Part shown: piece by piece, positions 1,837 to 54,660 of the stretch
Position numbering within the stretch: position 1 is the stretch's first letter
Layout of the letters: each line of letters starts with the position of its first letter
Sequence record: PP418985.1
Length of the DNA: 64,000 nucleotides
Strand: one strand, 5' to 3'
Origin: Escherichia phage UPWr_E1
Translations under genes and position numbers: made by a program
The notes under the pieces: generated by a model
What the model was told of the DNA's origin: nothing
What the model saw: only the letters and a program-made list of their open reading frames with translations
The model's database searches: none

Positions 1837-2034
1837 ATGAAGGTTAAAACATTGGCTGATATGGATGAGATCGAGACTCAAGTACACGCGGCGCTAGTCG
1901 GTTATGAGTTTGGTCGATTCCTTAATAAGTTCCATGATTATAAATGCTTAAATTGTGGTGCTCATAACGTAATTGGTGCTTGCTGTATTAATCCTGTTAT
2001 AGTACCATATAAAAGAAATGAAACAGAAGAGTGA
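1837..2034 (+). CDS. hypothetical small Cys-rich protein (65 aa)
   Basis: ATG 1837 after GAGGATTATATT; contains CLNCG...CC. Confidence 0.5.
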   Translation: MKVKTLADMDEIETQVHAALVGYEFGRFLNKFHDYKCLNCGAHNVIGACCINPVIVPYKRNETEE

Positions 2035-2044
2035 GGAATACAAA

Positions 2045-2479
2045 ATGAAAAAGTTGATGGCTACATTTCATGATATGCGAGATCTACCAGGTTTAGCACA
2101 TATCGATTTTCCTGTTACTATGGAAGTGTCGGAATATGACGGTTATCATGATATTCTGTTCATTAAAAATACTGAGTTTATCCGCTTAGGCGCTAAACCT
2201 GCTGTGCTGTACCCAGAAGGAAACCGGACAGCGGTCAGAAAAACAAATTCTGTTAAATTGGCATTTAGTTCAGATGTTGACTTGGAACCCGCTTTCGGAT
2301 ATACTCCGGTCGAGATCACGAAGTCAAATACATCTTTCGTGAAAGTAGGTGAGAAAACGCATATTTCAACCATGCAAGACGGTACACAATATCTATGGTC
2401 CGATTTCTGCCAGCGTTATGAGCGTTTATCATGGGCTACCCGCTTATGGTGCGTTGAGTATAAGGAGATCACAAAATGA
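2045..2479 (+). CDS. hypothetical protein (144 aa)
   Basis: ATG 2045 after GAGGAATACAAA. Confidence 0.55.
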   Translation: MKKLMATFHDMRDLPGLAHIDFPVTMEVSEYDGYHDILFIKNTEFIRLGAKPAVLYPEGNRTAVRKTNSVKLAFSSDVDLEPAFGYTPVEITKSNTSFVKVGEKTHISTMQDGTQYLWSDFCQRYERLSWATRLWCVEYKEITK

Positions 2480-2724
2480 TCACCGGATACATACCATATT
2501 CAACAACAAAACATATTGTCGGATTCGAAGACATAGAAAAGTCTTGCTTTCCTCTCAAGGTTGAAGTAGACTTTATTACAGAGAACGGATGGGCTTACGT
2601 TACTGTAGCAGAAATGAAGCGAGTAGGTTGGGAAAACTGCATACACCTACCGCATCTTATCCTAGATGTTCGTGCTGGTGAAATTGATATTGATGGAAAG
2701 ATCTATGGAGACAATGTAAAATGA
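2476..2724 (+). CDS. hypothetical protein (82 aa)
   Basis: ORF; ATGA overlap. Confidence 0.5.
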   Translation: MITGYIPYSTTKHIVGFEDIEKSCFPLKVEVDFITENGWAYVTVAEMKRVGWENCIHLPHLILDVRAGEIDIDGKIYGDNVK

Positions 2725-2975
2725 AAATTGAAATTTTCTACCGACGTTATTCATTCTTGGATAAAGTTAACCTTCCAATTATTGTTGAAGGTACACCATA
2801 TTATGAGGGCTTTTTGGTAACGACCGGAGAACTGCGAAAATCTGGAGTCCCCGTTGACCCTGAGTTTCATGATAATTATGAGTGGTGTTTCAGTGGCTTA
2901 TCTGCGAGTAGAGTAAAAGAAGCACGAAAAGCATCATGGTTTGCTCGCTTTAATAACTGGTTGAGGAAACTGTGA
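2721..2975 (+). CDS. hypothetical protein (84 aa)
   Basis: ORF; ATGA overlap. Confidence 0.5.
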   Translation: MKIEIFYRRYSFLDKVNLPIIVEGTPYYEGFLVTTGELRKSGVPVDPEFHDNYEWCFSGLSASRVKEARKASWFARFNNWLRKL

Positions 2976-3313
2976 TGAACGAAATGAAAATGTATATGAT
3001 CCTAAGTGATTCAGGATACACCTTCTTACAGGGTATTGATAGTGACTCGCGTCCTATTGTTTATGGCAAGGAACACCCGACCATCCCTGGGATCATTCTT
3101 GTTACGACAACATCACTTCGTCGAGTGTCGGAAAGTCCATACCTACAAAACGTAAAGCAAGACCGAGAATGGGCTTTCGAGTTAGGTAAAGATCTTGTTG
3201 AGTGGGTAAACTGTGAAGACAAGAACCAACGAAATCATGAAAGGAAGATTGCACGAATTGTACAGAGAAGAAAACTTGATGAAATCAAAAACAGGATTCT
3301 ACAATCAATGTAA
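2975..3313 (+). CDS. hypothetical protein (112 aa)
   Basis: ATG 2975 after GAGGAAA; overlaps upstream stop. Confidence 0.5.
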   Translation: MNEMKMYMILSDSGYTFLQGIDSDSRPIVYGKEHPTIPGIILVTTTSLRRVSESPYLQNVKQDREWAFELGKDLVEWVNCEDKNQRNHERKIARIVQRRKLDEIKNRILQSM

Positions 3314-3542
3314 CAGGGTATTCATTGTCCTGATGGATTCAGAAAACTATCCAGAACTCGCTAAAACGCGTTTCCCTTGCGTTGTTGAAGCATATAAGGT
3401 AAATGCACCGGATAAACAGTTTATCGTGTTAGCGAGCGAAATAGAGAGGTTAGGGGCGATTCCTAAACATGATGAATATATGTTTCGTAAGGTGTGCTCT
3501 GTACATCATTTTGATGTAGTAGTTAATTCACTAAAATCATAA
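3279..3542 (+). CDS. hypothetical protein (start uncertain)
   Basis: Track ORF 3213-3542 overlaps previous gene by 100 nt in another frame; downstream ATG chosen, no clear RBS. Confidence 0.3.
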   Translation: MKSKTGFYNQCNRVFIVLMDSENYPELAKTRFPCVVEAYKVNAPDKQFIVLASEIERLGAIPKHDEYMFRKVCSVHHFDVVVNSLKS

Positions 3543-3550
3543 AAAAGTTG

Positions 3551-3579
3551 TTGACAGGGGATCACGTATCCCCTATACT
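3551..3579 (+). promoter_or_regulatory. early promoter with spacer stem-loop (type I)
   Basis: TTGACA 3551-3556; GGGGAT-cacgt-ATCCCC 3557-3573; TATACT 3574-3579. Confidence 0.75.
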
Positions 3580-3621
3580 ACACACATCAAAACGAAACAC
3601 ACTTTCTTAAGGAGAATCAAA

Positions 3622-3900
3622 ATGAGCAACCTGTCTTTCGCTAAAGTAGAAATCACCAAAACTCGCGGTGGCTTTAAAATCAAAACTTCCAATATCACTT
3701 CCTGCCGTGGTTGCGTCCGGTTTGCGTTCGACTTAGCAGCGAAGCTGGGTATTAAAACCTTCACCGTTGAGAGCGGATCTAACTGGACCACTCTGATTGT
3801 TACTGCCGCTTGGATCAATGGCGAGTATGTAGAAAAAGCATACTTTGACATTTTCTATGACTACGAAGAAAAATGCTTTTATGCACTGCAAGACATGTAA
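3622..3900 (+). CDS. hypothetical protein (92 aa)
   Basis: ATG 3622 after AAGGAGAATCAAA; stem-loop promoter 3551-3579. Confidence 0.6.
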   Translation: MSNLSFAKVEITKTRGGFKIKTSNITSCRGCVRFAFDLAAKLGIKTFTVESGSNWTTLIVTAAWINGEYVEKAYFDIFYDYEEKCFYALQDM

Positions 3901-3910
3901 GGAGGATAAC

Positions 3911-4222
3911 GTGACAACACAAGATATTGTTAATGTTCTTTATATCTGGCCTACTGGTGCAATGATCTCGTATCTAGTATTCTGCTTGTACGCCAGATTC
4001 GACAAGGACACCAAAGAGGTCGATACAGGAGCATTTTGTATTGCTGCAATCGTATGGCCTATAACGTGGACAGTGGTTAATATTGTTATGTGCTATAAAG
4101 GATTGAAATGTTTTGGTTTGATGATTGCTGGTAAACCGGAAGCTAAACCGCGCACACATACCGGATTCAGTCCAAAACCAGTCGATGACGACGGTCGATA
4201 TAAACCGGAAGAAGATTTTTAA
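3911..4222 (+). CDS. hypothetical membrane protein (about 103 aa, GTG start)
   Basis: GTG 3911 follows AAGGAGGA; two hydrophobic segments; track start 3845 overlaps upstream gene. Confidence 0.45.
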   Translation: MTTQDIVNVLYIWPTGAMISYLVFCLYARFDKDTKEVDTGAFCIAAIVWPITWTVVNIVMCYKGLKCFGLMIAGKPEAKPRTHTGFSPKPVDDDGRYKPEEDF

Positions 4223-4229
4223 AAAACTG

Positions 4230-4266
4230 TTGACATGAAAATGCGGTTATCCTATAATAGCCGCAT
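4230..4266 (+). promoter_or_regulatory. early promoter with hairpin enclosing the -10
   Basis: TTGACA 4230-4235; TATAAT 4253-4258; inverted repeat ATGCGG 4241-4246 / CCGCAT 4261-4266. Confidence 0.65.
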
Positions 4267-4292
4267 CAAATGAACGATGTGAGGATTATATT

Positions 4293-4601
4293 ATGTTTAT
4301 CTCTTCTGCTACTCCAGTTAAAGTTTATGGCGAAACTGTGTATCTTCCGGCTGGCTATTGCTATGTTATCGTTGACCGTCACGGTGTAGTATATGCTTTT
4401 AAAGGTCGTCCGGTTGAAATTGATTCTGAATACGGTACATGGGGATATAAGGCCGCATACATGGATATTCCTGATTTTGGGGTACGCTTAGGAAGATTTG
4501 ATAATGATGTTAAACCATGCCTGATTAAGTATGCATCCTATGGTAAAACTGTTAAACCAAATAGCGTCGGTTGGATTGATGACGGCGTTAACGTGAAATA
4601 A
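4293..4601 (+). CDS. hypothetical protein (102 aa)
   Basis: ATG 4293 after GAGGATTATATT; promoter 4230-4266. Confidence 0.6.
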   Translation: MFISSATPVKVYGETVYLPAGYCYVIVDRHGVVYAFKGRPVEIDSEYGTWGYKAAYMDIPDFGVRLGRFDNDVKPCLIKYASYGKTVKPNSVGWIDDGVNVK

Positions 4602-4615
4602 TGTGAGGTGAATTT

Positions 4616-4909
4616 ATGCTGTCTACTCGTAAAATGGTTGTTGGTGTCGCTGAAAATGCTTTAGAAATCGCTGATGAGGCTTTGACCGTCGCTTATGTTC
4701 AACGTGAAGAATTGCTATTGAAACACGCGGACATGTTGGTTGAACTGAAAGAAGCGATCAAGGCTGGTAAAAGAAGCACCGCTATTGCCATTAAACTTTC
4801 TGATAGTGAAGATGAGATCGTGGAGATCCACACTAAGATTAAGGAAGTAGAAAAATACTCTGAAATGCTGCGACATAATCTTGATGAATTGGGGGTAAAT
4901 CATGGCTAA
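4616..4909 (+). CDS. hypothetical helical protein (97 aa)
   Basis: ATG 4616 after GTGAGGTGAATTT. Confidence 0.55.
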   Translation: MLSTRKMVVGVAENALEIADEALTVAYVQREELLLKHADMLVELKEAIKAGKRSTAIAIKLSDSEDEIVEIHTKIKEVEKYSEMLRHNLDELGVNHG

Positions 4910-5123
4910 GTTACGATCTGGACGAGTTTTAACGCTGGCTGAACTGAAAGAAAAAGGTTTAGACCCTGATTCTGTCGGTATTAGACCTATTAATTACATT
5001 CTGTTTCTAGAGGGTAAACTCTTTACTAATGCTCATCCAGCATTAAATGCACCACATTTTTATAAGTGCAATGACTTTAACGGTTATATCGTTCCAGAAT
5101 ATTTCTTAGAATTTGATGATTAA
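4902..5123 (+). CDS. hypothetical protein (73 aa)
   Basis: ORF overlapping upstream stop. Confidence 0.5.
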   Translation: MAKLRSGRVLTLAELKEKGLDPDSVGIRPINYILFLEGKLFTNAHPALNAPHFYKCNDFNGYIVPEYFLEFDD

Positions 5124-5409
5124 TATAAAACATTCACCGACCGGAAAGGGGTCGGTGATCTTCAATGATGATAAACCGTTAATCTTAATTCGAAATGGTG
5201 ACTGGACATTACATGATACCCGTGTTACTATCCATTCACCGCCTAAAGAGATTCAACGGGAATTGGTTAGGATCGCCCTAACCGATAAGCATAAAGAGGC
5301 GGTAGGCTATTCTCTTTTGAAGTTGGGTGTTGACTTTCCTTTCGAGTATACGCTAACATTCAGAGAGCAGTCAGTGAAGCTAACAGAGATTCTATTCTCT
5401 GAGATATGA
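5116..5409 (+). CDS. hypothetical protein (97 aa)
   Basis: ATG 5116; a perfect 9-bp hairpin (5134-5158) lies inside the 5' coding region. Confidence 0.45.
   Translation: MINIKHSPTGKGSVIFNDDKPLILIRNGDWTLHDTRVTIHSPPKEIQRELVRIALTDKHKEAVGYSLLKLGVDFPFEYTLTFREQSVKLTEILFSEI
5134..5158 (+). other. perfect 9-bp stem hairpin inside a coding region
   Basis: TCACCGACC-ggaaagg-GGTCGGTGA; no T-run follows. Confidence 0.5.
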
Positions 5410-5419
5410 GGATTATATA

Positions 5420-5851
5420 ATGGTTTATCCAACTCCTAGTAAGATTTACATCGATGATACCCATTTTATGGTTGATATGATGGGTATCACTTTTAGCGGT
5501 AAGATTAATATTGTAGAATGGGAATTACACGGTCAACCTGTTACTGACTATGACCACTATATCCCTTTTTTGGGTGATGATAATTTTGTTTCGTTTGACC
5601 ATGAAGGTTACATGATCTTTGAACAGTCCGACGTGCCTTTGTATCTTGCAATGATGCAAATTCCTACGAAAGTTTCTGTTGCTGAGGGTGATTGCGATTG
5701 TTGCGGTTGGTATACTGTAACAGATATTAAGTTGCCATCCGGTAAAGAACTTTACAATGAAGACCATTTTGGAAACTGCAATTTTCCGTGTGATTGGGAA
5801 GAATTTTTCGAACTGGTAGAAATTGAAAGAACTTATTTGAGGAAGGGATAA
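5420..5851 (+). CDS. hypothetical Cys-rich protein (143 aa)
   Basis: ATG 5420 after GAGGATTATATA. Confidence 0.55.
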   Translation: MVYPTPSKIYIDDTHFMVDMMGITFSGKINIVEWELHGQPVTDYDHYIPFLGDDNFVSFDHEGYMIFEQSDVPLYLAMMQIPTKVSVAEGDCDCCGWYTVTDIKLPSGKELYNEDHFGNCNFPCDWEEFFELVEIERTYLRKG

Positions 5852-7514: not shown

Positions 7515-7787
7515 ATGCGTAAGATGTTTAAAGCTGGTGTTGCCTATGTTTTTAAATCTGAGCAAGCACGTAAAGACTTCTTAGAGGATGACTACGAAGG
7601 ATTGAAAGATACCTACGAAGCAATCAAGAATGGATTTACTGTTCTTAAAGTGTCACCCATTGGTTATGTAAGTGAAATCTCGGTTGACGGGAAAACATAT
7701 ACCGCTAAAGACTTTGATCCGCGTTGGGAATTTATGCTGCTTCCGTGTGACCGCATTCTGTTTCGTGCTGTTCAATTAGTGAAATGA
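7515..7787 (+). CDS. repeat-domain family protein (1 module, 91 aa)
   Basis: ATG 7515 after AAGGAGAATCAAC; stem-loop promoter 7455-7489; GFxVLKV...DG.TY module. Confidence 0.6.
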   Translation: MRKMFKAGVAYVFKSEQARKDFLEDDYEGLKDTYEAIKNGFTVLKVSPIGYVSEISVDGKTYTAKDFDPRWEFMLLPCDRILFRAVQLVK

Positions 7788-7801: not shown

Positions 7802-8362
7802 ATGGTACAGAAAACGTATAAATTGTATCCGGCTAAGTCTTCAAATGATACTGTTTTTGAACGAGGTCGTTATTACACTTTCCGTAATGCTGAGTCCGCA
7901 GAGGAATTTGTTAAACGCTATCCACAACATAACAAGTTCCTGTATGGTGTGCTTCACAAGGGCTTTAAAGTTCTGACGGTTAATGTTATGGGTAAAGTGT
8001 ATTTGGTAGAAACTCATGATTATGAGGGCGCGTCAATCATGATTGATGCAAGCGAGCGCAAATACTTTAAACGCATCACTAAAAAGCAGTTTGAAGAAAT
8101 GAAACCAGTTAAGAAAGAAGACTCTCTGGAAGATCTGATTAACTTGTTTGGTAAAGTTCGCTCTATCTCCTTTGCGATTGAAGATGACATTACCGACAAT
8201 AAAATCTTTATCAAGAACGCGGAAGACCTGAAAGAGTTCCTTATTGAAAATAGATCTCGGCTGGAAACCTTTCTTGAAAGTGAAATTATTCGACATGATA
8301 CCTACGCTAAATTCAGCGCCGAGAAAGTGGAAGAACTGAAAGAGATTAAAAAGTCACTTTAA
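7802..8362 (+). CDS. repeat-domain family protein (module + C-terminal helical LKEFL region)
   Basis: ATG 7802 after AGAGGATTATATT (alternative in-frame ATG 7784); GFKVL...ERKYFKRI motif. Confidence 0.55.
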   Translation: MVQKTYKLYPAKSSNDTVFERGRYYTFRNAESAEEFVKRYPQHNKFLYGVLHKGFKVLTVNVMGKVYLVETHDYEGASIMIDASERKYFKRITKKQFEEMKPVKKEDSLEDLINLFGKVRSISFAIEDDITDNKIFIKNAEDLKEFLIENRSRLETFLESEIIRHDTYAKFSAEKVEELKEIKKSL

Positions 8363-8425: not shown

Positions 8426-9604
8426 ATGGCTAAATTCTTTGAAGGGCATTACTATGCATTCCGTGAAGGCGGTAAAGATGAGTTTCTAGATTTTTCTCGC
8501 TATTCAACTATTCTGACCGATGCTTCGCGCCGTGGTCATATTCGGGTTGCTGGAATCGTAGAAAAGGGCTTTAAAGTATTAGAAAAAGATGACCACGGTC
8601 ATGTTGTTACTATTGAAGCTGGTGATGTGGTTTATTCCGCTAAGGATATTGTGGATTATTGGGCTACTATGATCATGCACAATGAGCGCAAATACTTTAA
8701 ACGTATCTCAAAAGAGACATACGAAGCAATGAATAAGAAAGAGGATGTAATGCCGACCTACTTTGAAAAAGGTAAATGTTATTCATTCACTCCAGAAGGT
8801 TTGCAAGAATTTAAGCGATTCTGGGGAGAGCATGATCCAGAACACAAAGAAGCCATGAAACTTGTTGATTTTGTTGAGTATGGCTTTTTAGTTGAAGAAG
8901 AATTTCACGGATCAGCTACCATGATCACCGCGAAAGATGAAACCGTCAAGGCAGAACGTTTTTGTGACCAATGGAATTGCTTGTTTGATGGTAGCGAATT
9001 TGAATACTTCGCAGAGATCACCCGCGCTGAATATACCCGTATGCAAGAACGTGGTCAGAGATTTAAAGTAGGCGAACGCTACAAGCCAAATCCACATAAT
9101 TTGCCTCATTGGTTTAACACTGAAACCGTATCAAGTCATGTTATTGAAATTGTTCAAACGCTGGAACATGGATTTAAGGTAACTAAAGTAGATTCTTTCG
9201 GAAGTGTTGACGCGGTTGAAGTTGATGGTGTAGAATATACTCCTAAATCTTTTGGGCTTTGCTGGTATCACCTGATCAGCAATGATGAACGTTATTACTT
9301 TGTTGAACTGCCATCTGAACCGGAAGAAGCACTAGAAGATCATGATCATCTGTCTGAACTGGTTAAACTGTTTGGTGATCTGCCGGGTGGTGTAGGGGTG
9401 GCGGTAATGGGTGAAGGTGCTGTTATTCGCAACCTGAAAGACCTTAAAAAGTTCTTGTTCGACATGCTGCCTAAACTCGATGAGAATCTAGATACAGATA
9501 TTCAGAATCGCAAAGAAATTGTTAAAGAGACTGAAAAAGAGATCGAAGAGATTCGAGCAATTCGCCAGAAGGTGAAAGCAGTAAAGAAAAAAGTTAGTGC
9601 TTGA
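8426..9604 (+). CDS. repeat-domain family protein (3 modules + C-terminal helical region, 392 aa)
   Basis: Stem-loop promoter 8366-8400; internal repeats each ending ERKYFKRI / EFEYFAEI / ERYYFVEL. Confidence 0.65.
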   Translation: MAKFFEGHYYAFREGGKDEFLDFSRYSTILTDASRRGHIRVAGIVEKGFKVLEKDDHGHVVTIEAGDVVYSAKDIVDYWATMIMHNERKYFKRISKETYEAMNKKEDVMPTYFEKGKCYSFTPEGLQEFKRFWGEHDPEHKEAMKLVDFVEYGFLVEEEFHGSATMITAKDETVKAERFCDQWNCLFDGSEFEYFAEITRAEYTRMQERGQRFKVGERYKPNPHNLPHWFNTETVSSHVIEIVQTLEHGFKVTKVDSFGSVDAVEVDGVEYTPKSFGLCWYHLISNDERYYFVELPSEPEEALEDHDHLSELVKLFGDLPGGVGVAVMGEGAVIRNLKDLKKFLFDMLPKLDENLDTDIQNRKEIVKETEKEIEEIRAIRQKVKAVKKKVSA

Positions 9605-9658: not shown

Positions 9659-10153
9659 ATGTGGGTACAAGATATTTGGTATACTGTAACTAAAGAAAAC
9701 CTTGACGCATTCAGCGACCAATCTTGCGCTAATAGCTCAATTGCTGGTATCCTTACTGATGTGTTTGGGGGTGTAGATAAAATTCGTTTTAAAGTTGTTG
9801 TTAGTTCGCTGGGTCAGGTGAAAGATCTTTACACCGACGATAAAGACCTTGATCTTAAACTTCGTCTTCGTATTGAAAATGCAAGTCTAGGTTATTGGTT
9901 TGAAGATAACGAATATGAATACTTCACACCAGCAATTAAAGTTTTTGCAACTAAACTGGAAGCTGTACTGAATCTTCGACCAATTAATGTTGACGGGTAC
10001 ATTATTAAAAATCTTCAGGAGTGGGATTCATATCTAGCTCAAGTTATCCGTAACAGCAAGCAGGAAGCCGCTAATAAGAAACGACAAGAGATCAAACAGC
10101 TTAAAGCTGAACTAGAAGCGGCAGAAAAAGAATTAGCAGAACTGGTAAAATAA
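9659..10153 (+). CDS. hypothetical protein with C-terminal coiled coil (164 aa)
   Basis: Stem-loop promoter 9601-9634; terminator 10163-10185 downstream. Confidence 0.6.
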   Translation: MWVQDIWYTVTKENLDAFSDQSCANSSIAGILTDVFGGVDKIRFKVVVSSLGQVKDLYTDDKDLDLKLRLRIENASLGYWFEDNEYEYFTPAIKVFATKLEAVLNLRPINVDGYIIKNLQEWDSYLAQVIRNSKQEAANKKRQEIKQLKAELEAAEKELAELVK

Positions 10154-10197: not shown

Positions 10198-12060
10198 ATG
10201 GAAAAACTAATCAAAGACATTACAGAAATCGCAACGGGTAAAGAAAACGAAGTAAGCAAAGAGAACGCGAACAAAGACGCGCGAACATTCCCGACACGTC
10301 GAGATCTGATTGCTGGTGCTGTGTCTAAACAGATTGCTAAAACCGTGTTACCTGAGCACATCTATAAAGCGCATGTAGACGGTGATATTCATTATCATGA
10401 TATGGATTATGCACCCGCTATGCCGTTTACTAACTGCTGTCTTGTTAATCTCAAAGACATGTTAGAGAATGGTTTTAAATTGGGTAGTGCACAAATCGAA
10501 AGTCCGAAATCAATCGGTGTTGCATGTGCTGTAACCGCTCAAATTATCGCACAGGTGGCAAGTCATCAATATGGCGGAACTACCATAGCAAACATTGATC
10601 AGGTTTTAGCGCCATACGTTGAGAAAACATATCATAAACACCTTGCTGATGCCGAAACCTACGGAATCAAAGCTGATACTCTCTATGCACAAGAGAAGAC
10701 AGAAAAAGAAACGCTAGACGGATATCAGGCGTTGGAATATGAGATCAACACTTTGTTCTCTACCAATGGTCAAACGCCTTTTGTGACTTTAACATTTGGT
10801 ATGGGTACTAGCTGGGAAGAAAAACTGATTCAGAAAGCGATCCTGAACGTTCGAACTAAAGGTTTAGGTAAAGATGGTATCACTCCGGTGTTTCCTAAGC
10901 TGGTGATGTTCTTAGAAGAAGGATTAAACCTTAAACCGGAAGATCCGAACTACGACATTAAGCAACTTGCATTGGAATGTTCTAGTAAGCGTCTTTACCC
11001 TGATTATATCTCTGCGAAGAATAACCGTAGTATCACTGGATCTAGTGTTCCGGTTAGCCCGATGGGTTGTCGTAGCTTCCTGGGTGTGTGGCATAATGAG
11101 AAAGGCGAAGAAGTATTAGACGGACGTAATAACTTAGGTGTTGTGACTCTGAATCTTCCGCGTATTGCTCTTATTGCCGCGCGTCGTGCTGGTAAAGCGT
11201 CTGTAATGCGCAGAATTGAGCTATTCGAACAAGAGCTAGCTAATCGTATGCCTATTTGCTTTGATGCGCTCATGAGTCGCGTAGACGCTTTAAAAGGCGC
11301 TAAAGCCAATGTTGCTCCTGTACTGTATACCGAAGGTGCATTTTTCCGTATTCATCAAAACGATGAAATTTTGGAAGTGCTGAAAGATGGTCGCGCTAGT
11401 ATCTCTCTTGGTTATATTGGTTTACATGAGGTATTGAGCGTCCTGTTTGGTGTCCATCCGTTTGATTCGGAAGATGCGCAGCGATACGGTAAACATATTC
11501 TTAAGATCTTGCGTCATTATACTGAAAAATGGAAGGACGAAACCGGACTTGGGTTTAGTCTTTACGGTACGCCAGCCGAGAGCCTTTGTTATCGATTTAA
11601 TCGACTTGACCGAGAGCAATTTGGTATTATTAAGGGTGCTACCGATAAAGACTGGTACACCAACTCATTCCACCTTGACGTAGACCGGAAGGTTACACCG
11701 TTTGAGAAAATCGACTTTGAGAAAGATTATCACTGGCTGGCGTCCGGTGGCATGATCTCTTATGTTGAGTTCCCAGACATGAAAAACAACCTGAAAGGTC
11801 TTGAAACTGTAGTAGACTATGCAATGGATAAATTGCACTACTTCGGTGTTAATACCCCTTCTGATGTGTGTCATGTATGCGGATCTACTAAGGAAATGAG
11901 AGCGACCGAGTTTGGTTTTGTTTGTCCTGATTGCGGCAATGATAATCTGGAAAAAATGAATGTTATCCGTCGCGTTAGTGGATATCTTGGATCTGTTGAT
12001 CTGCGTCCATTTAACCACGGGAAACACTCTGAGATGGTAAACCGCGTTAAGCATATGTAA
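10198..12060 (+). CDS. nrdD: anaerobic ribonucleoside-triphosphate reductase (class III)
   Basis: 620 aa; C-terminal glycyl-radical region and zinc ribbon (CHVCG...CPDCG); no intron interruption. Confidence 0.92.
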   Translation: MEKLIKDITEIATGKENEVSKENANKDARTFPTRRDLIAGAVSKQIAKTVLPEHIYKAHVDGDIHYHDMDYAPAMPFTNCCLVNLKDMLENGFKLGSAQIESPKSIGVACAVTAQIIAQVASHQYGGTTIANIDQVLAPYVEKTYHKHLADAETYGIKADTLYAQEKTEKETLDGYQALEYEINTLFSTNGQTPFVTLTFGMGTSWEEKLIQKAILNVRTKGLGKDGITPVFPKLVMFLEEGLNLKPEDPNYDIKQLALECSSKRLYPDYISAKNNRSITGSSVPVSPMGCRSFLGVWHNEKGEEVLDGRNNLGVVTLNLPRIALIAARRAGKASVMRRIELFEQELANRMPICFDALMSRVDALKGAKANVAPVLYTEGAFFRIHQNDEILEVLKDGRASISLGYIGLHEVLSVLFGVHPFDSEDAQRYGKHILKILRHYTEKWKDETGLGFSLYGTPAESLCYRFNRLDREQFGIIKGATDKDWYTNSFHLDVDRKVTPFEKIDFEKDYHWLASGGMISYVEFPDMKNNLKGLETVVDYAMDKLHYFGVNTPSDVCHVCGSTKEMRATEFGFVCPDCGNDNLEKMNVIRRVSGYLGSVDLRPFNHGKHSEMVNRVKHM

Positions 12061-12066
12061 TTTTCA

Positions 12067-12098
12067 GCCGATCCGAAAGGGTCGGCTTTTTCGTTTTT
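12067..12098 (+). terminator. intrinsic terminator after nrdD
   Basis: 8-bp stem GCCGATCC / GGGTCGGC with GAAA loop, then TTTTTCGTTTTT. Confidence 0.8.
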
Positions 12099-12103
12099 AG
12101 GTG

Positions 12104-12131
12104 TTGACAATCTTGTTAGCTCATGTATAAT
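12104..12131 (+). promoter_or_regulatory. sigma70-type early promoter (extended -10)
   Basis: TTGACA 12104-12109; TGTATAAT 12124-12131. Confidence 0.7.
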
Positions 12132-12163: not shown

Positions 12164-12700
12164 ATGTTTTGTGTACTGAATAAAGAAATTAAAATTCGCA
12201 AGTTAGAAATTGGTGATGGTGTAGTTGTTAAAATGCACGCTAGCACACTGGCTAGCTTTGGTACAAAAGAAAGTTTCTTTATTATGGGAACTGTTGTTAA
12301 TATCTGCTGGAGTAAAGGCGAAGGCACACAAATCCGTAGTTTTTGTGTCGTTGACGAAGATAATAATCTGTATGTGATTCGCTATCAGAATCAATCTGTA
12401 TTGGTTTATACCGATAATTCACGAGAACTGTATACGCTGGACTTTGCTAAACTATGTGATTGTGATAAAAAGATTCAGGCGTACCACACAGAAGGCTGTT
12501 TTGGTGTTGGCGTCGAAGAGGAAGAGTACATCCCATTGGAAGTCGGGGCAGAAATTAAACATAGTGCCACGGATCGTATTTTTACGGTTGTTGCTGTTAA
12601 TGCAACTCAATTTGTAGCACAAGCACATAATACGGGATTCGTTATCTATGACATTGGTAATGCAAGTTCTCATTTTGAGGGCGTACAATTTCGTTTATAA
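12164..12700 (+). CDS. hypothetical protein (178 aa)
   Basis: Promoter 12104-12131; ATG 12164 after AGAGGATAACATT. Confidence 0.55.
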   Translation: MFCVLNKEIKIRKLEIGDGVVVKMHASTLASFGTKESFFIMGTVVNICWSKGEGTQIRSFCVVDEDNNLYVIRYQNQSVLVYTDNSRELYTLDFAKLCDCDKKIQAYHTEGCFGVGVEEEEYIPLEVGAEIKHSATDRIFTVVAVNATQFVAQAHNTGFVIYDIGNASSHFEGVQFRL

Positions 12701-12712
12701 TGTGAGGTGATT

Positions 12713-13243
12713 ATGTCTAAGTTATTGAATCGTAAGCGTAAAGCACAACGACACAAAGAACGAGCTAAAAAGATTGCTATTGAACTCTGTGAGCGTGAGG
12801 ATAGCTATTTGTCTACTGGTCGTTTGCATACATTCCATGCATTGATTGATGGTAAGCCAGTGTTGCATAATCATGATTGCTTGGCACTGTTTCACGAAAT
12901 CGAACCAATTCATCGTGAATGGGATGACAACAAAGCAAAAGGTCAATATTTCCTTACTTGTTCGTGCGGTCATGCTGGATGTGCTGGATATTGGGAACCT
13001 GTTACTATCCGCGAGAAAAATGATACTATTCAATGGGTTGCCCGTACCCGCGATGGTTATGATAAAGGTGCTGATTGTACTGGTGATAACGTAGTTTACT
13101 TTAATCGTGATTGGTATTATATGGCGCGATGTATGATCCTGTTTTATCTTGACTCGATGCCGTATGAATATTTCAGTTTCCAGAATGGGACCGAACTTAC
13201 TGGTAGAGAATGGTCTGAATACATTCGAAAAAATTTAAAATAA
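12713..13243 (+). CDS. hypothetical protein, basic N-terminus, Cys/His cluster (176 aa)
   Basis: ATG 12713 after GTGAGGTGATT; CSCGHAGCAGYW motif. Confidence 0.55.
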   Translation: MSKLLNRKRKAQRHKERAKKIAIELCEREDSYLSTGRLHTFHALIDGKPVLHNHDCLALFHEIEPIHREWDDNKAKGQYFLTCSCGHAGCAGYWEPVTIREKNDTIQWVARTRDGYDKGADCTGDNVVYFNRDWYYMARCMILFYLDSMPYEYFSFQNGTELTGREWSEYIRKNLK

Positions 13244-13318: not shown

Positions 13319-13471
13319 ATGTGGACTTTACTGATTTGGGAAACTGAAAACGCACAAGTAGAAATCCGTGAATACGAATACCTAAGCCCAGCTTATCTAT
13401 TGGCATCTCGCGGTGGTTACTATAAAGCGCAGATTGTAAACGAGTTCGGGGTAATTGAATATGAGTTCTGA
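13319..13471 (+). CDS. hypothetical small protein (50 aa, not in ORF track)
   Basis: ATG 13319 after AGGAGAATCAAAT downstream of stem-loop promoter 13248-13276; overlaps nrdG start by 11 nt. Confidence 0.4.
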   Translation: MWTLLIWETENAQVEIREYEYLSPAYLLASRGGYYKAQIVNEFGVIEYEF

Positions 13472-13964
13472 TACATACGGCAAACTACGCTATGCCGATA
13501 TTAAAGATTGTGATATGGTTAACGGTGAGGGAGTGAGAGTCTCCCTTTACGTTACCGGATGTTCACACGCATGTGATGGTTGCTTTAATGCTAGCCTACT
13601 CAATCCTAAGAACGGGGAACCATTCACCGATGATACAATGGGATTGGTTTTGGATCTGCTTAGACCGGATTTTATTCAGGGGCTAACCTTCTTAGGTGGT
13701 GATCCGTTGTATAAACGAAATTTAAAGGGTGTACAACGGATCATTGATGAAGTAAAATCATGGATGCCAAATAAAGATATTTGGCTATGGTCCGGTTATA
13801 CCCTTGACCAATTGAATGATGAGCAAAGAAAAATTATAGAATCAGTTGACATGTTCATCGATGGTCGGTATATTAAAGACATGCCAACGAAGAAGCCGTG
13901 GCGGGGGTCTGACAATCAAGTACAATACAAGATTGTTGATAATATCCCAGTGAAAATTATTTGA
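13461..13964 (+). CDS. nrdG: anaerobic ribonucleotide reductase activating protein (radical SAM)
   Basis: Cys cluster CSHACDGC; size about 167 aa; track start 13455 is TTG, ATG 13461 preferred. Confidence 0.85.
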   Translation: MSSDTYGKLRYADIKDCDMVNGEGVRVSLYVTGCSHACDGCFNASLLNPKNGEPFTDDTMGLVLDLLRPDFIQGLTFLGGDPLYKRNLKGVQRIIDEVKSWMPNKDIWLWSGYTLDQLNDEQRKIIESVDMFIDGRYIKDMPTKKPWRGSDNQVQYKIVDNIPVKII

Positions 13965-13974
13965 GGTGATTATT

Positions 13975-14463
13975 ATGAAATGGGAATTGGGTAAGATGTA
14001 CACTCTTGATGGTGACGAGAAGAAAGCAGAATTTACCAAATCGGAACTGTCAATAAACCGTCAAGTTGCCGAGTTTCTTGATGGGCGTCCTTTTACCGTC
14101 GAGGCTATGAGTAATGAGGGTCATGTTCTTGAAATCTCGTTAAGTGATGGTAAATGTATTTCTGTTCTGGACACTCCAATTGGTGCACATGGCGCGTGGT
14201 TTTGGGCTGGTGAACGTCGATTCTTTAAAGAAGTTAAAGAACCGGATTTAACCTTAGAACGTCTGGGTCTGCTTATGGAAGCCTACGACATTCAGTTAAT
14301 CGACAAGACGGGTCTACAACATAGTATTGCCAAAATTACTACCCTAGAAGGTATTAAGAGCGTTCTAAATGGTATGCCTAGCCGGATCGGTGCTATCCGC
14401 GAATACAAGCAAACGCGCGACCGTATGATCCAATTAGAATCACGTATCAAAAATGAGAGATAA
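13975..14463 (+). CDS. repeat-domain family protein (MKWExGK module + helical C-terminus)
   Basis: ATG 13975 after GAGGTGATTATT; MKWELGKMY...DGRPFTV...ERRFFKEV. Confidence 0.6.
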   Translation: MKWELGKMYTLDGDEKKAEFTKSELSINRQVAEFLDGRPFTVEAMSNEGHVLEISLSDGKCISVLDTPIGAHGAWFWAGERRFFKEVKEPDLTLERLGLLMEAYDIQLIDKTGLQHSIAKITTLEGIKSVLNGMPSRIGAIREYKQTRDRMIQLESRIKNER

Positions 14464-14467
14464 TATT

Positions 14468-14953
14468 ATGAAATGGGAAGAAGGTAAGACCTATGTGTTG
14501 GTTGGCGAGTACGAAAAGCGTATTTTGCGTGATTGTTGGCGTTACGAACAAAGACCTAATATTGATGGCAGGTTTACATATCTCGATAAACCATTTATTG
14601 TTGCTACGGTAGACCGTTGGGGTAATGTGCGTTCAATCTATAATCACGAAGGGGATTATATTAGTTCTATCGATATTGGTGATAATATATGGTTTTCCGA
14701 TGGCGACCGAGCGTGCTTCAAAGAAGTTTTATTACCTGGCCATGAACATGATCTAATCGATCTTCTCAAATTGGCGATGGATAATTATAAAATTCGTTTT
14801 GAATGCAAATCACATGCGGCTATCGGTGCTAACGCCTTGCGTCATATCTCCAGTTTTGAAGAGTTGAAAGATTTTCTTGACAAAATGCCGGAAAGAGTTC
14901 AAGCTATACAGGAAGCTGAGAAAGCGTTAAACGAACTTGATAAAATCGGTTAA
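14468..14953 (+). CDS. repeat-domain family protein
   Basis: MKWEEGKTY...DKPFIV...DRACFKEV; ATG 14468. Confidence 0.6.
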   Translation: MKWEEGKTYVLVGEYEKRILRDCWRYEQRPNIDGRFTYLDKPFIVATVDRWGNVRSIYNHEGDYISSIDIGDNIWFSDGDRACFKEVLLPGHEHDLIDLLKLAMDNYKIRFECKSHAAIGANALRHISSFEELKDFLDKMPERVQAIQEAEKALNELDKIG

Positions 14954-14965
14954 GAGGATTATATT

Positions 14966-15799
14966 ATGAAATGGGAAATTGGTAAAACTTACACTTGGAA
15001 AGATGAAAACGCTAAAACTGCGTTTATTGCTAACATAGAAGGTGTTCTTTCTCCGCTTAATAGCGATATTAGCGAAGCTATTGGCGACAAGCCATTTACA
15101 ATCATCGAGATCGAGGGTAATGGTTGGATTGATGTAATAGAGCTAGACGGTGTTTATCATACGGCGAAAACTGCTACAGGAAAAGACATTTGGACATCAA
15201 CATATTTCTTTAGTCCATTCGATAGAAAATTCTTTCGTGAAGTTGAAGAAGTTCCTCCTAAATGGGAAGTTGGTAAAACTTATATTTGGAAGGATGTAAA
15301 CGCAAAAGTGACGTTTTCTCACTGTTCTAATATCAACCGTAAAATTGCTGATTGGATAGGAGATGAGACTTTTACGGTATCTTCCGTTGATTCTGTTGGT
15401 TTCGTTACTATGATCGACGTCAATAATGATAATGCTTGTGGAACATTTAATCCTCATTCAGCTGGTGTTGATGATGATGTTGATGCTGTGTGGTTTGTTG
15501 GGCTTGAACGAAAATATTTTCGTGAAGTTGAAACAGTGAAAGAACCAGAAGAAAAGGTGAACGATGATTCTAAGATCGTTGGACAGTTGAAACGTCTGTT
15601 TAGTAGTCGTTATGGCCTGACAATGGTTAAATTTGGCGAAGCAAATGAAGGTAAAACCTTTGAACGTTTCGATGATTTCATTGCAGCACTTGACAAAATG
15701 GACGAAATCATGCAAGATCGCCAGAAGATTAAAGACCTTCAAGAAGATATTAAACGTCGTGAAGTTGAATTTTTGATTGGTAAAGAGCGAGGTTGGTAA
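14966..15799 (+). CDS. repeat-domain family protein (2 tandem modules + helical C-terminus, 277 aa)
   Basis: MKWEIGKTYTW...DRKFFREV then KWEVGKTYIW...ERKYFREV; ATG after GAGGATTATATT. Confidence 0.65.
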   Translation: MKWEIGKTYTWKDENAKTAFIANIEGVLSPLNSDISEAIGDKPFTIIEIEGNGWIDVIELDGVYHTAKTATGKDIWTSTYFFSPFDRKFFREVEEVPPKWEVGKTYIWKDVNAKVTFSHCSNINRKIADWIGDETFTVSSVDSVGFVTMIDVNNDNACGTFNPHSAGVDDDVDAVWFVGLERKYFREVETVKEPEEKVNDDSKIVGQLKRLFSSRYGLTMVKFGEANEGKTFERFDDFIAALDKMDEIMQDRQKIKDLQEDIKRREVEFLIGKERGW

Positions 15800-15800
15800 T

Positions 15801-16283
15801 ATGTTTGTTGTCGGTATGACCTATCAGTGGAAAGATAATAAAACGCGCGAAGATTTTACAAACTCTAGCGTTGCAAATGATGCAATAGCAGAGTTTATCG
15901 GCGACCGTCCATTTAAAGTTATTGCGTTTGATCACCATGCACCGGATATCGAATATGTTTCTGTGATTGAAATTGATGGCACGATATACACCTGCCGCAA
16001 TGTTGATGATGTACGTGAATACGCGCACAACTGGTTTTTGCAATCAGAAGAACGTTATTTTAAAGTGGTATCGGCAGAACTGACCACCGATGCAATGTTG
16101 GAACATTTTTTCAACAACTACGAAGTTTCTGTGCGTCGATATGGTGAAGAGGAAGTGTTTAAAATTGATGACTATAATCAATTTAAACGAGTATTTGCCA
16201 CTAAGTTACAGCATGATGTTGAACGCGAACAACGCATCAAGGAACTGGAAGAAGAACTGGAACGATTAAAGGCAGAGAAATGA
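15801..16283 (+). CDS. repeat-domain family protein (1 module + coiled-coil C-terminus)
   Basis: MTYQWKD...DRPFKV...ERYFKVV; ELEEELERLKAEK tail; ATG 15801. Confidence 0.6.
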   Translation: MFVVGMTYQWKDNKTREDFTNSSVANDAIAEFIGDRPFKVIAFDHHAPDIEYVSVIEIDGTIYTCRNVDDVREYAHNWFLQSEERYFKVVSAELTTDAMLEHFFNNYEVSVRRYGEEEVFKIDDYNQFKRVFATKLQHDVEREQRIKELEEELERLKAEK

Positions 16284-16549
16284 TCGAGGTCTACGGCATA
16301 CCTAAAGAGGCTTATCATTGTTATGGCTGTATCAATGCAATGAAGCTACTCGACGATCTGGGTATTCCGTATACACTTAAACCAGTATTCAAGCAGGTCG
16401 GGGTTGACATTATTCCCGACCGTGATATGATTGAAGAACTGGCGGGGAGGCTGAACTCAAAGAGCCTCCGATTTGTATACCCCCAGATATTCATTGACAA
16501 CGAGCACATTGGAGGCTATAAAGAACTGAGGGATATTTATGATTATTGA
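16280..16549 (+). CDS. nrdH: glutaredoxin-like protein (NrdH-like redoxin)
   Basis: CYGC redox motif, PQIFIDNEHIGGY C-terminus; near nrdG as in T4. Confidence 0.7.
   Translation: MIEVYGIPKEAYHCYGCINAMKLLDDLGIPYTLKPVFKQVGVDIIPDRDMIEELAGRLNSKSLRFVYPQIFIDNEHIGGYKELRDIYDY
16396..16431 (+). promoter_or_regulatory. promoter-like element embedded in the nrdH-like coding sequence
   Basis: Hairpin GGTCGGG 16396-16402 / CCCGACC 16415-16421 enclosing TTGACA 16404-16409; TGaTATGAT 16423-16431. Confidence 0.4.
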
Positions 16550-16697
16550 GAATTTAGTTTCGGTGTTCATTATTGCTTTATTTGCTATAATGGCTTTACC
16601 GTTGAAGACGTGTAAACACTGTAAAGGAACAGGATTGCGCGGTGATGGGTGTTGTGCTCATTGTCACGGATCTGGTAAAGTAAGTATCATTAAGTAA
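16539..16697 (+). CDS. small membrane-anchored protein with DnaJ-type zinc-finger repeats (52 aa, not in ORF track)
   Basis: ATG 16539; N-terminal hydrophobic helix then CKHCKGTG and CAHCHGSG (CxxCxGxG x2); embedded promoter-like element 16396-16431 upstream. Confidence 0.4.
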   Translation: MIIENLVSVFIIALFAIMALPLKTCKHCKGTGLRGDGCCAHCHGSGKVSIIK

Positions 16698-31615: not shown

Positions 31616-31933
31616 ATGGATAAGAAACCAACAAGTTTAGAAGAAGCACACGGCTTGATTCAAGAAGCAATGAAGACAGTTATTCAGGAACTGATAATTG
31701 TTGATGAAGAGGGAGAGCATCATATTGTCTATATTCATAATGTTGAATACGATCCAGACACTAAAGGTATTGTGGTCGACTACTCCACGCCGTCAGATCG
31801 TGATGTGGTATATCCTCACGTCATTAAGGCGTTAACAGCGCAGATCAAAGAAGCAGAAGAAAAGTTGAAAAAAGAAACTTTCTGGTATAAACTCAAGACC
31901 TTTGTTATGCGTGTAGTTGGGGGCTATGTATGA
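31616..31933 (+). CDS. hypothetical protein in gene 40 position (105 aa)
   Basis: ATG 31616 after AGAGGATTATATT; terminator 31573-31595 upstream; positional only. Confidence 0.5.
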   Translation: MDKKPTSLEEAHGLIQEAMKTVIQELIIVDEEGEHHIVYIHNVEYDPDTKGIVVDYSTPSDRDVVYPHVIKALTAQIKEAEEKLKKETFWYKLKTFVMRVVGGYV

Positions 31934-33342
31934 TTAAAACTATCTTTTCACAGTTGATTTACAATGGCGCATTCTTTACGAATGTATGGCCTCACCTTAA
32001 AGCGGACTACTTCACCGAAGACGAAGAAAAACTGATTTATAAGCTGATTAAAAAGCACGTAGACGAATATTCCAATATTCCTACGCCAACTGCATTACAG
32101 ATTGCTTTAGACAAGGAGAGAGGCAATCAGACAACATATGAAGGGGCTAAAACTCTTCTTGATTCGCTTGAGAATACACCGGAAGACCTTGATTGGTTAA
32201 TGAAGGAAACCGAAAAATTTATTCGTGACCGTGCCATGTATAATGCAATGTCACGGGCGCTAGAGATTCAAGCGAACGCACAACTACCAAAAGAGAAACA
32301 GAATAAGAAATTGCCTGGCGAGGGAGCTATTCCTGAGATCATGCAGGAAGCACTATCCATTACGTTTGATTCTGATGTAGGTCATGACTGGTTTAATGAC
32401 TTTGAAAAACGATTCTTGCTATATCAGACTAAGGCGAATAAGATCCCGTTTAAGCTGCCGATGTTGAATAAAATCACGAAAGGTGGGGCAGAGAAAAAGA
32501 CATTGAATGTTTTACTCGCTGGTGTAAACGTTGGCAAATCATTGGGTTTGTGTTCTCTTGCTGCGGACTATATGGAATGCGGTTATAATGTTCTGTATAT
32601 CTCAATGGAGATGGCAGAGCACGTAGTAGCAAAACGTATTGACGCAAATTTGCTTGACATTACCTTAGATGAATTGGATAATGGCAATGTTTCCTTTGCT
32701 GAATATTCCGCACGCATGAAACGTGTCAAGAATAAGAAAGCAGGAGAACGTCCAATCGGCAAGCTGATGATCAAGCAGTATCCGACTGGTGGCGCGAACT
32801 CCAACCACTTTGAGGCGTTAATGAATGAATTGCGACTCAAGAAACAGTTTAAACCTGATGTTGTGATTGTTGACTATCTGGGGATTTGCGCATCGTCTCG
32901 TTTGCGTGTATACTCTGAAAATAGTTACACACTAGTTAAAGCTATTGCGGAAGAATTGCGCGGATTTTTTGTTAAGTGGGATGTTGTTGGTTGGACTGCG
33001 GCACAGACTACCCGTGCTGGTTGGGACGCATCGGATCTTAACATGAGTGATACCGCTGAATCAGCAGGTCTTCCGGCTACAGCCGATTTTATGTTGGGTG
33101 TAATTGAAACCGAAGACCTTGCAAAAATGGGTGTTCAATTACTCAAGCAGATTAAATCTCGTTACGGTGATAAGAACTACTATTCACGGTTTAACGTTGG
33201 TGTGAAAAAAGGAAATCAGCGTTGGTATGAAGTTCCAAACCAGATCGCAGATCAGGAGAATGCACAAGTTAAACCACAAAGCGCACAGCAAGCAGAGAAA
33301 CGAGAAAAACTCGACGAGCTAGCAAATAACATGACTTTCTAA
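31930..33342 (+). CDS. 41: replicative DNA helicase gp41 (DnaB-like)
   Basis: 470 aa; Walker A GVNVGKS in C-terminal RecA-like domain; position after uvsX. Confidence 0.9.
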   Translation: MIKTIFSQLIYNGAFFTNVWPHLKADYFTEDEEKLIYKLIKKHVDEYSNIPTPTALQIALDKERGNQTTYEGAKTLLDSLENTPEDLDWLMKETEKFIRDRAMYNAMSRALEIQANAQLPKEKQNKKLPGEGAIPEIMQEALSITFDSDVGHDWFNDFEKRFLLYQTKANKIPFKLPMLNKITKGGAEKKTLNVLLAGVNVGKSLGLCSLAADYMECGYNVLYISMEMAEHVVAKRIDANLLDITLDELDNGNVSFAEYSARMKRVKNKKAGERPIGKLMIKQYPTGGANSNHFEALMNELRLKKQFKPDVVIVDYLGICASSRLRVYSENSYTLVKAIAEELRGFFVKWDVVGWTAAQTTRAGWDASDLNMSDTAESAGLPATADFMLGVIETEDLAKMGVQLLKQIKSRYGDKNYYSRFNVGVKKGNQRWYEVPNQIADQENAQVKPQSAQQAEKREKLDELANNMTF

Positions 33343-53942: not shown

Positions 53943-54056
53943 TTATGAAAGATGATGAATCATTGAAAATTGCACTGGTTATGCTATTACAATGTATAGA
54001 ATTAGCAAACCACGAAAAAATGTTGATACAGCAGCGTGAAACTATGAGAGGTGATT

Positions 54057-54625: not shown

Positions 54626-54630
54626 AAAAG

Positions 54631-54657: not shown

Positions 54658-54660
54658 AAG

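Follow-up and report, generated by a model that had tools for sequence, protein, structure and literature searches.

The stretch of Escherichia phage UPWr_E1 analysed here (record PP418985.1; 64,000 nucleotides (nt), hereafter the window, to which all coordinates refer) carries four tightly packed plus-strand genes, g1 to g4, between nrdG and nrdH. These genes, referred to as cluster 2 (13975-16283), are members of the known GoF/Frd.2 gene family; new are the tandem barrels, the helical tail, the expansion to nine genes within the window and the cassette-like exchange of barrels. Family membership, fold class, domain architecture, cassette polymorphism and genomic context are established by the observations presented below. 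Regarding function, it appears reasonably probable that cluster 2 represents a co-transcribed early or prereplicative array of GoF/Frd.2 paralogues, the products of which would serve as adaptors, probably dimerised through their tails, in mRNA stability or host RNA metabolism.

By profile comparison, the modules of cluster 2 are homologous to the N-terminal barrel of T4 GoF (ComC-alpha, 141 amino acids (aa)) and of T4 Frd.2. A profile built from all twelve modules of the window aligned with T4 GoF at an hhalign probability of 97.4% (E 1.6e-11) over 89 columns, colinear with its whole N-terminal domain (residues 1-92), and with T4 Frd.2 at 92.4% (E 5e-7), the match to T4 MotB.1 being marginal (60%, E 9e-5). 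All four cluster-2 proteins were assigned to a single PHROG family, phrog_5347 (E 6e-45 to 1e-69), which g3 matched twice. They also cross-matched phrog_622, the family of T4 GoF and Frd.2, as well as three PHROGs that bear the name 'goF mRNA metabolism modulator'; T4 GoF in return matched phrog_5347 (E 6.5e-7). Scans of the window proteins against Pfam and NCBIfam yielded nothing significant, and none of the eight window proteins tested matched the Pfam family PF03197 (FRD2; gathering threshold 29 bits) at E<=1, compared to 133 bits for T4 Frd.2.

T4 GoF and cluster 2 share the signature (W/F)E.GK.Y ... F ... PF.V ... G.V ... E..(Y/F)F.EV, an acidic linker following the barrel and their nearest PDB folds (FeoA and IdeR); both are accessory genes of T4-type phages, the location of cluster 2 in an early region being probable. 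However, T4 GoF and T4 Frd.2 each possess a single barrel without a terminal helical tail, unlike the tandem barrels of g3 and the tails of cluster 2. The GoF gene is located near gene 39 in T4, whereas cluster 2 resides in the nrd cluster; T4 frd.2 adjoins the nucleotide-metabolism genes frd and td, as cluster 2 adjoins nrdG and nrdH. The third member of the published family, T4 MotB.1, has a barrel whose class was predicted alike (PMC12152347), and nine genes in the 64 kb of the window compare with three described in T4.

The GoF family has been known genetically since the late 1970s. It was described in 2025 by Kim et al. as the GoF/Frd.2/MotB.1 family and called 'LSm-like', with the SH3-like domains of FeoA and IdeR as nearest PDB neighbours and with a barrel that is followed by a linker and then by variable C-terminal domains; GoF itself is an abundant early protein (PMC12152347). 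Neither Krischvirus nor RB49, tandem barrels, paralogue arrays or coiled-coil tails are mentioned in that publication (PMC12152347). In the RefSeq record of phage ECD7, two cluster-1 orthologues are labelled 'goF mRNA metabolism modulator / Frd.2', with the notes reading 'Frd.2 conserved hypothetical protein'. Cluster 2 is labelled 'hypothetical' in all records listed in the DNA search and can now be annotated as GoF/Frd.2-family. An earlier note on this DNA, made from the sequence without database searches, missed this homology; the family is thus not an unknown one. The homology detected is not to a housekeeping protein, because GoF is a dispensable early protein, and it coexists with a statistically supported similarity between the two clusters of the window.

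The module was predicted to fold into a bent five-stranded antiparallel beta-barrel, the nearest PDB folds being FeoA/IdeR-type SH3 domains. In the AlphaFold2 (AF2) model of g1, based on 31 sequences and featuring a mean predicted local distance difference test (pLDDT) score of 78, values ranged between 80 and 92 for the barrel and between 60 and 74 for the C-terminal domain (helix, hairpin, helix), and the barrel elements followed in the order β1, two helices, β2-β3-β4, short helix, β5. For g3 (36 sequences), pLDDT values of ~90 and ~75 were obtained for modules a and b, respectively, the C-terminal domain was modelled at low confidence and a terminal helix extended over residues 235-274. In FeoA, too, strands 1 and 2 are separated by a pair of helices. 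The likeness to FeoA and to the SH3-like domain of DtxR/IdeR/SloR (CATH 2.30.30.90) is one of fold and not of membership: the modules lack sequence membership in FeoA (Pfam) or the DtxR SH3-like domain as well as a metal/FeoB context or a link to iron transport, and metal binding of the FeoA/IdeR type was rejected, no His or Cys being conserved in the module alignments. The columns that are conserved (Y9, F20, F40, V42, G49 and F84) form a hydrophobic core with no catalytic-looking polar set, and the module therefore resembles a binding scaffold rather than an enzyme. Searching PDB chains by sequence with the family profile returned coiled-coil noise and no solved relative. A Foldseek search against BFVD gave 73 matches at E<=1e-3; among the best 50, the named ones were uncharacterised and originated almost all from T4-type phages (Aeromonas, Proteus, Edwardsiella, Citrobacter, Pectobacterium, Morganella and Klebsiella), together with phAPEC8-like phages.

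Since no Hfq or Sm protein occurred among the top 60 structural neighbours in either of the two structural searches, the module is named a FeoA-type SH3-like barrel here; the closest similarity to Sm/Hfq and the ring oligomers that mark the LSm/Sm/Hfq superfamily proper were not found. This bears on the idea that the proteins are true LSm/Hfq-like RNA chaperones, with barrels assembling into rings that bind or remodel RNA and tandem barrels acting as pseudo-oligomers, which we regard as quite improbable. The published label 'LSm-like fold' speaks for it, as does the listing of Hfq among the reported structural neighbours of the GoF N-terminal domain (PMC12152347), and tandem barrels could mimic multimers. 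Furthermore, the suppressor form GoF(D25Y) stabilises mRNA carrying the 5' untranslated region of gene 41 and raises its half-life (PMC12152347). However, this effect is Hfq-independent, wild-type GoF is nearly inactive on RNA, and AlphaFold 3 (AF3) predicted no confident homomultimers, neither dimers nor hexamers, for GoF or MotB.1 (PMC12152347). In addition, the barrel of the window contains the two inserted helices between strands 1 and 2, and the cluster-2 barrels are acidic (isoelectric point 4.6-5.3, net charge -3 to -7).

In cluster-2 proteins, one or two barrels of ~90 aa are followed by a linker that is short and frequently acidic, by a small alpha/beta C-terminal domain and, at the end, by an amphipathic helix. 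The flexible linker and the C-terminal domain of variable structure, both published traits of the family, are thus present in the window proteins, as judged from alignments and AF2 models; the lack of a detectable relationship to the C-terminal domains of GoF and Frd.2 agrees with such variability. All eight window family genes with a C-terminal domain encode the terminal helix, which is absent from T4 GoF and Frd.2. The helical or coiled-coil tails described in the earlier note are borne out insofar as AF2 placed a long helix at the terminus and a crude heptad check was compatible with a coiled coil. The same note considered the tail architecture to be common to both clusters; a likeness of the C-terminal domains is visible by eye, but statistically weak (profile probability just 7%, E 0.005). 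All sequence motifs quoted there, namely (G/D)(R/K)PF, ER(R/K)(Y/F)F(K/R)EV, ELKDFLDKMP and ELEEELERLKAEK, are present. The word F-(K/R)-E-V, however, does not mark the protein C-terminus, as had been assumed, and instead constitutes the last strand of the barrel.

In total, nine genes with twelve modules were detected when the 642 open reading frames (ORFs) of the window were scanned with hidden Markov models (HMMs), confirming the minimum of nine genes and twelve modules counted previously and including the gene at 33393-34028. Five copies of the ~90-aa module reside in the four genes of cluster 2, two of them in g3; ORFs, phrog_5347 matches and HMM domains agree on these four tandem paralogues and on the double module of the 277-aa protein, as first proposed. 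Pairs of the paralogues are 29-33% identical over 90-150 residues. An HMM derived solely from the five cluster-2 modules recovered three cluster-1 genes at E 8e-7 to 7e-5 and the gene at 33393-34028 at E 2e-6, the fourth cluster-1 gene being marginal (E 0.19). The value of E 8e-12 for the latter gene with the broader family HMM is not independent, its own barrel being part of the training set; this barrel does align with the other modules. The proposed link between the two clusters was upheld by direct comparison of their profiles (hhalign probability 97.4%, E 1.5e-11, 80 columns). No window ORF beyond the nine genes was found with the broader HMM (next ORF E 0.026), and the ORFs 12164-12700, 34754-34957, 5420-5851 and 3622-3900 were dismissed as further members, their HMM scores not being significant. 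The gene at 33393-34028 belongs to a separate subfamily of 204-211 aa (P0131, P0145 and P0160). Among the BFVD matches, a 211-aa protein of ECD7 carries the UniProt name 'Dc2', and this protein is probably the orthologue of that gene.

That the shared peptides are merely compositional and the region harbours no real gene family is a notion of practically no weight. It could be supported by the missing Pfam and NCBIfam matches for g1-g4, but chance resemblance and spurious ORFs are refuted by the PHROG E-values given above, by profile-profile probabilities of up to 97%, by orthologues in 58 phage records and ~100 protein clusters, by confidently modelled AF2 barrels and by strong ribosome-binding sites at the gene starts.

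The repeat exists at the protein level only, module interiors being ~40-47% identical in DNA, which rules out a recent tandem amplification. Tandem Repeats Finder reported just a 20-nt hexamer run between 13000 and 17000, and no array of module-sized units. A scan of the whole window against Rfam gave no match. Modules a and b of g3 share 81-82% DNA identity in their first ~57 nt only. The start region GAGGATTATATTATG occurs at 14 sites in the window within one mismatch (e.g., 1825, 4281, 7790, 9647, 14954, 31604, 43897 and 52674), compared to 0.02 expected. It was rejected as a family-specific mark, because it also precedes unrelated genes; occurring before family and unrelated genes alike, it is therefore a phage-wide start-site signature.

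Regarding transcription, a consensus scan revealed a sigma-70-type promoter-like site at 13846-13874, which is likely to be the early promoter of cluster 2 and is embedded in DNA that is 95-97% identical in ECD7. Terminator-like sites were not found on the plus strand inside cluster 2, and the late-promoter box TATAAATA is missing from the plus strand of the whole window. From these three features, it follows that g1-g4 are probably transcribed early or middle as a single unit reading into nrdH, in agreement with the early-region context assumed in the earlier note. The only TATAAATA box of the window is located on the minus strand (61219-61226). The composition of the window is even (~40% GC), and GC skew is positive until ~54 kb, near which it flips sign; this flip and the minus-strand box suggest a switch to a late-transcribed minus-strand block (~54000-64000). 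Just downstream of nrdD, a strong intrinsic-terminator-like hairpin (AGCCGATCCGAAAGGGTCGGCT and a T run) lies directly ahead of a sigma-70 promoter that matches the consensus perfectly (TTGACA-16-TATAAT; 12066-12131 for the pair). This layout is shared with the 'PeSL' (promoter-early stem-loop) cassettes, which were described for the hyperplastic regions of RB49 and phi1 and reported to drive module shuffling (PMC2839356).

For the mode of action, we favour an adaptor function in which the cluster-2 proteins would act as dimers, probably formed through the tail. The variable barrels would recognise a host or phage ligand of RNA metabolism, which could be the leader of an mRNA or else a protein, for instance a nuclease or a termination factor, while the constant C-terminal part would self-associate or dock. 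As an outcome, the stability of phage transcripts would be modulated during takeover, as the GoF mutants D25Y and G84R do for T4 gene 41 mRNA. A role in RNA stability is proposed because of the phenotype of these two mutants, the basic patch in cluster 2 and the status of frd.2, which in a genome-wide CRISPRi-ART knock-down screen was the sole T4 gene classed as 'Fit' whose function is unknown (PMC11879866). Early expression, dimerisation and any RNA-related or host-directed activity are inferences.

The basic patch concerns the last strand, equivalent to GoF residues 81-89, which reads GERRFFKEV, GDRACFKEV, FDRKFFREV, LERKYFREV and SEERYFKVV in the five cluster-2 modules. Its net charge ranges between 0 and +1 in cluster 2, compared to -3 in GoF (NEAGFFDEV) and a family median of -2. 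In the column of GoF G84, K or R occurs in 32 of 93 family modules; cluster 2 features R, A, K, K and R, so that four of the five modules carry K/R at the position altered by the suppressor change G84R. At the D25 column, R is the commonest residue (12 modules), and 11 modules have Y or F there. Judging from this column composition, the classical 'go' mutations would therefore bring GoF closer to residue types that other family members often carry, provided that the alignment-based equivalence of the positions and the meaning attached to it hold.

Several observations weigh against the adaptor function. The nearest folds of the barrel are protein-binding domains, and the acidity of the cluster-2 barrels is unusual for direct RNA binders. 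Functional data are limited to gain-of-function mutants of a distant paralogue, GoF, and wild-type GoF and MotB.1 had little effect in an RNA reporter (PMC12152347). Moreover, deletion and amber mutants of goF and motB.1 and an amber mutant of frd.2 exhibited no growth defect in the assays used (PMC12152347). The C-terminal domains of cluster 2 were modelled at low confidence (pLDDT 33-74); homology to their counterparts in GoF and Frd.2 could not be demonstrated and was rejected (profile probability <1%). The promoter upstream of g1 is a consensus match alone, tail dimerisation was deduced from the crude heptad check, and the AF3 predictions for GoF and MotB.1 mentioned above also speak against multimers.

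Comparison with related phages indicated that the barrels behave as cassettes. Compared to the window, module a of the g3 orthologues is ~93%, 75% or 69% identical and module b either ~95% or ~45%; the two modules assort independently, and the C-terminal domain and tail stay 90-100% identical. Module b is absent from nine clusters and from isolate E26, which possesses a single-module g3 of 178 aa, and one orthologue cluster carries module b only. The orthologues of g1 likewise fall into a group with 88-94% and another with 59-65% identity, their C-terminal halves being near-identical. In P0125 (154 aa, from a Krischvirus-like contig), the first half of a g1-type barrel is fused with the end of module b and the C-terminal domain of g3, as though g2 and g3 module a had been deleted when paralogous barrels recombined. 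At the DNA level, identity to ECD7 amounts to 87-100% along the locus, interrupted by two sharply bounded islands of 35-75% identity (Table 1). The island edges lie just inside the conserved coding stretches for MKWE.GK.Y and ER..F.EV, and these stretches are likely to have served as recombination substrates. Through recombination, probably at the conserved module edges, barrels are swapped, lost and fused as cassettes, which suggests that the ligand itself varies between hosts.

As a separate observation, the barrel of most g1 orthologues (174-182 aa) is set apart from the C-terminal domain by an acidic insert (12-20 residues, e.g., KIPESEEKEE), which g1 of the window lacks (site 14234-14260). 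A comparable acidic linker is found in T4 GoF; during gut-on-chip evolution, a 21-bp deletion that had arisen in this linker spontaneously and in frame reached a high frequency (PMC9271167).

The swap, loss and fusion of barrels between near-identical phages is the pattern expected under host-driven diversification, and it fits the main rival of the adaptor function well, namely a host-directed, protein-binding arsenal for counter-defence or takeover that does not involve RNA. Here, every barrel would target a host protein of its own that varies between strains, for example a sensor or effector of a defence system; avidity or the recruitment of a common partner would come from the constant C-terminal domain and tail, and exchange would follow host diversity. 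The nearest folds, SH3-like, Tudor and KOW barrels, fit this idea, since RNA-polymerase-binding domains such as the C-terminal Tudor domain of PcrA/UvrD and CarD are among them. Acidic barrels, nine genes in accessory regions compared to three described in T4, and the annotation of all listed orthologues as hypothetical also fit. However, no family member is known to be tied to any defence system, a literature search with goF, T4 and 'defense' gave nothing relevant ('GOF' denoting gain-of-function in the main match), and the only known family phenotype concerns the mRNA level. Most listed relatives are found in Straboviridae whatever the host genus, and the family is therefore old and stable and was not recently acquired; the module interiors diverged anciently as well (~45% DNA identity). 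An arsenal of this kind is possible, but it appears clearly less probable than the adaptor function. The anti-defence role that the earlier note read from the gene expansion received no direct support, although it is compatible with the cassette-like exchange of barrels.

A more far-reaching reading can also be formulated, which we consider doubtful. The barrels would serve as interchangeable specificity cassettes in an early system whose protection of phage transcripts, or blockage of a host factor, would depend on the strain; the Krischvirus paralogues with a basic patch would naturally protect RNA, as T4 GoF does only via D25Y or G84R, and tandem barrels together with a dimerising tail would enable multivalent recognition. 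If true, the array would represent a diversity-generating repertoire of counter-measures, and a wild-type function would at last be available for the GoF family. The role of wild-type GoF has been a puzzle ever since goF mutants turned out to rescue T4 on rho-mutant hosts (PMC12152347); the mutations D25Y and G84R allow T4 to plate on rho026 (nusD) hosts. Regardless of this reading, the state of the family in the window is richer than in T4, comprising nine genes, twelve barrels, tandem barrels, a helical tail and cassette exchange. The natural variants offer a ready series, with basic or acidic last-strand motifs, one or two barrels and alternative alleles of module b. By means of this series, the old GoF question becomes testable in terms of RNA versus host-protein binding and of whether the suppressors simply bring back a residue type common in the family.

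To evaluate the extent of the family beyond the window, an exhaustive profile search was performed on 1.84 billion cluster representatives with a cut-off of E<=1e-3. It returned 90 cluster representatives, most of which are 120-210 aa in size and contain one barrel; a few large repeat proteins among them (P0188, P0194) are artefacts. Two word-indexed homologue searches starting from g1 reached Krischvirus-like relatives only. Proteins with two or three barrels were also encountered elsewhere, namely P0133 (274 aa), P0135 (254 aa), P0136 (354 aa), P0139 (267 aa), P0151 (246 aa) and P0174 (376 aa). These multi-barrel proteins of other T4-type phages are 20-30% identical to window proteins, and several end in a charged helix resembling the window tails; the relatives listed are all hypothetical. 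Relatives of P0174 were detected in 177 phage records, chiefly from Klebsiella, Enterobacter, Cronobacter and Citrobacter phages, in addition to Yersinia. For P0133, the best cultured matches were the Krischvirus orthologues of g3, and no P0133-related locus could be confirmed in IMG/VR. The family is small and, as far as its relatives can be identified, made up of phage proteins, nearly all of them from T4-type phages; tandem barrels recur within it.

In the DNA search, the locus 13400-16600 matched 58 phage records with 92-94% identity, those listed being coliphages of the RB49/ECD7/GEC-3S type, which belong to the genus Krischvirus (family Straboviridae). The phage analysed is accordingly a Krischvirus, and the g3 product shares 100% identity with a protein of phage UPWr_E1. 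The lineage in the ECD7 RefSeq record gives Straboviridae with no subfamily stated. According to the same record, the order on the plus strand is dam, nrdC, gp49 endonuclease VII, the four cluster-1 genes, nrdD (10198-12060), three small ORFs, nrdG, the four cluster-2 genes, nrdH and a gp55.2-like gene, continuing onward to gp55. A good ribosome-binding site precedes the start of each of g1-g4, and the intergenic gaps measure 1-12 nt. For g1, the first in-frame start is GTG 13966, but it is the ATG at 13975 that is preceded 6 nt upstream by the ribosome-binding site GAGGTG. The near-identical gene starts reported in the earlier note hold for g1-g3, which begin with MKWE; the start of g4 is most likely ATG 15801 (MFVVGMTYQWKD) and not MTYQWKD at 15816, because ECD7 and E26 annotate 160 aa and MFVVGMTYQWKD aligns with KWEVGKTYIWKD of g3 module b.

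Table 1. Positions of cluster 2, its flanking genes and the remaining family members in the window.
Feature	Position	Strand	Description
Cluster-1 gene 1	7515-7787	+	90 aa, barrel only; E 8e-7 with the cluster-2 HMM
Cluster-1 gene 2	7802-8362	+	186 aa; barrel, C-terminal domain, helical tail; phrog_8944 E 2e-99; ECD7 orthologue annotated 'goF mRNA metabolism modulator / Frd.2'
Cluster-1 gene 3	8426-9604	+	392 aa; three tandem barrels, C-terminal domain, helical tail; top match of the exhaustive profile search, three stretches
Cluster-1 gene 4	9659-10153	+	164 aa; divergent barrel, C-terminal domain, helical tail; cluster-2 HMM E 0.19 (marginal)
nrdG	13455-13964	+	Upstream flank of cluster 2
Sigma-70-type promoter-like site	13846-13874	+	TTGACA-17-TATATT, 11/12; within the nrdG 3' end, ~100 nt ahead of g1; consensus scan
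g1	13975-14463	+	162 aa, starts MKWELGKMY; barrel aa 1-88, short linker, small alpha/beta C-terminal domain, terminal helix aa 134-161; phrog_5347 E 6e-45
Divergent DNA island 1	14000-14260	+	g1 barrel interior and linker; compared to ECD7
g2	14468-14953	+	161 aa, starts MKWEEGKTY; one barrel, C-terminal domain (ELKDFLDKMP helix), short helical tail; phrog_5347 E 7e-56
g3	14966-15799	+	277 aa, starts MKWEIGKTY; two tandem barrels, linker, C-terminal domain, long terminal helix aa 235-274; phrog_5347 twice, E 1e-69
g3 module a	14966-15256	+	aa 1-97; cluster-2 HMM gives g3 two domains, 7e-36 and 4e-43
g3 module b	15257-15553	+	aa 98-196, opens PKWEVGKTY at residue 98; exchangeable cassette
Divergent DNA island 2	15281-15569	+	g3 module b; compared to ECD7
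g4	15801-16283	+	160 aa; one barrel, C-terminal domain, ELEEELERLKAEK tail; stop overlaps nrdH start (ATGA); phrog_5347 E 6e-52
nrdH	16280-16549	+	Downstream flank of cluster 2; ATGA overlap with g4
Ninth family gene	33393-34028	+	211 aa; one barrel ending FFDEV as in T4 GoF, long linker, helical tail; between helicase gp41 (31930-33342) and primase gp61 (34967-35995)

Between nrdD and nrdG, two adjacent ORFs (12164-12700 and 12707-13243) encode 178 aa each; they are hypothetical in ECD7 and do not belong to the GoF family (best E 0.39). The ORFs 3535-3897 and 5384-5848 matched the GoF-module HMM weakly and non-significantly (E ~0.03). Upstream of dam (2018-5409), a run of many small plus-strand ORFs (70-150 aa) was observed, among which other small-domain paralogue families may be present.

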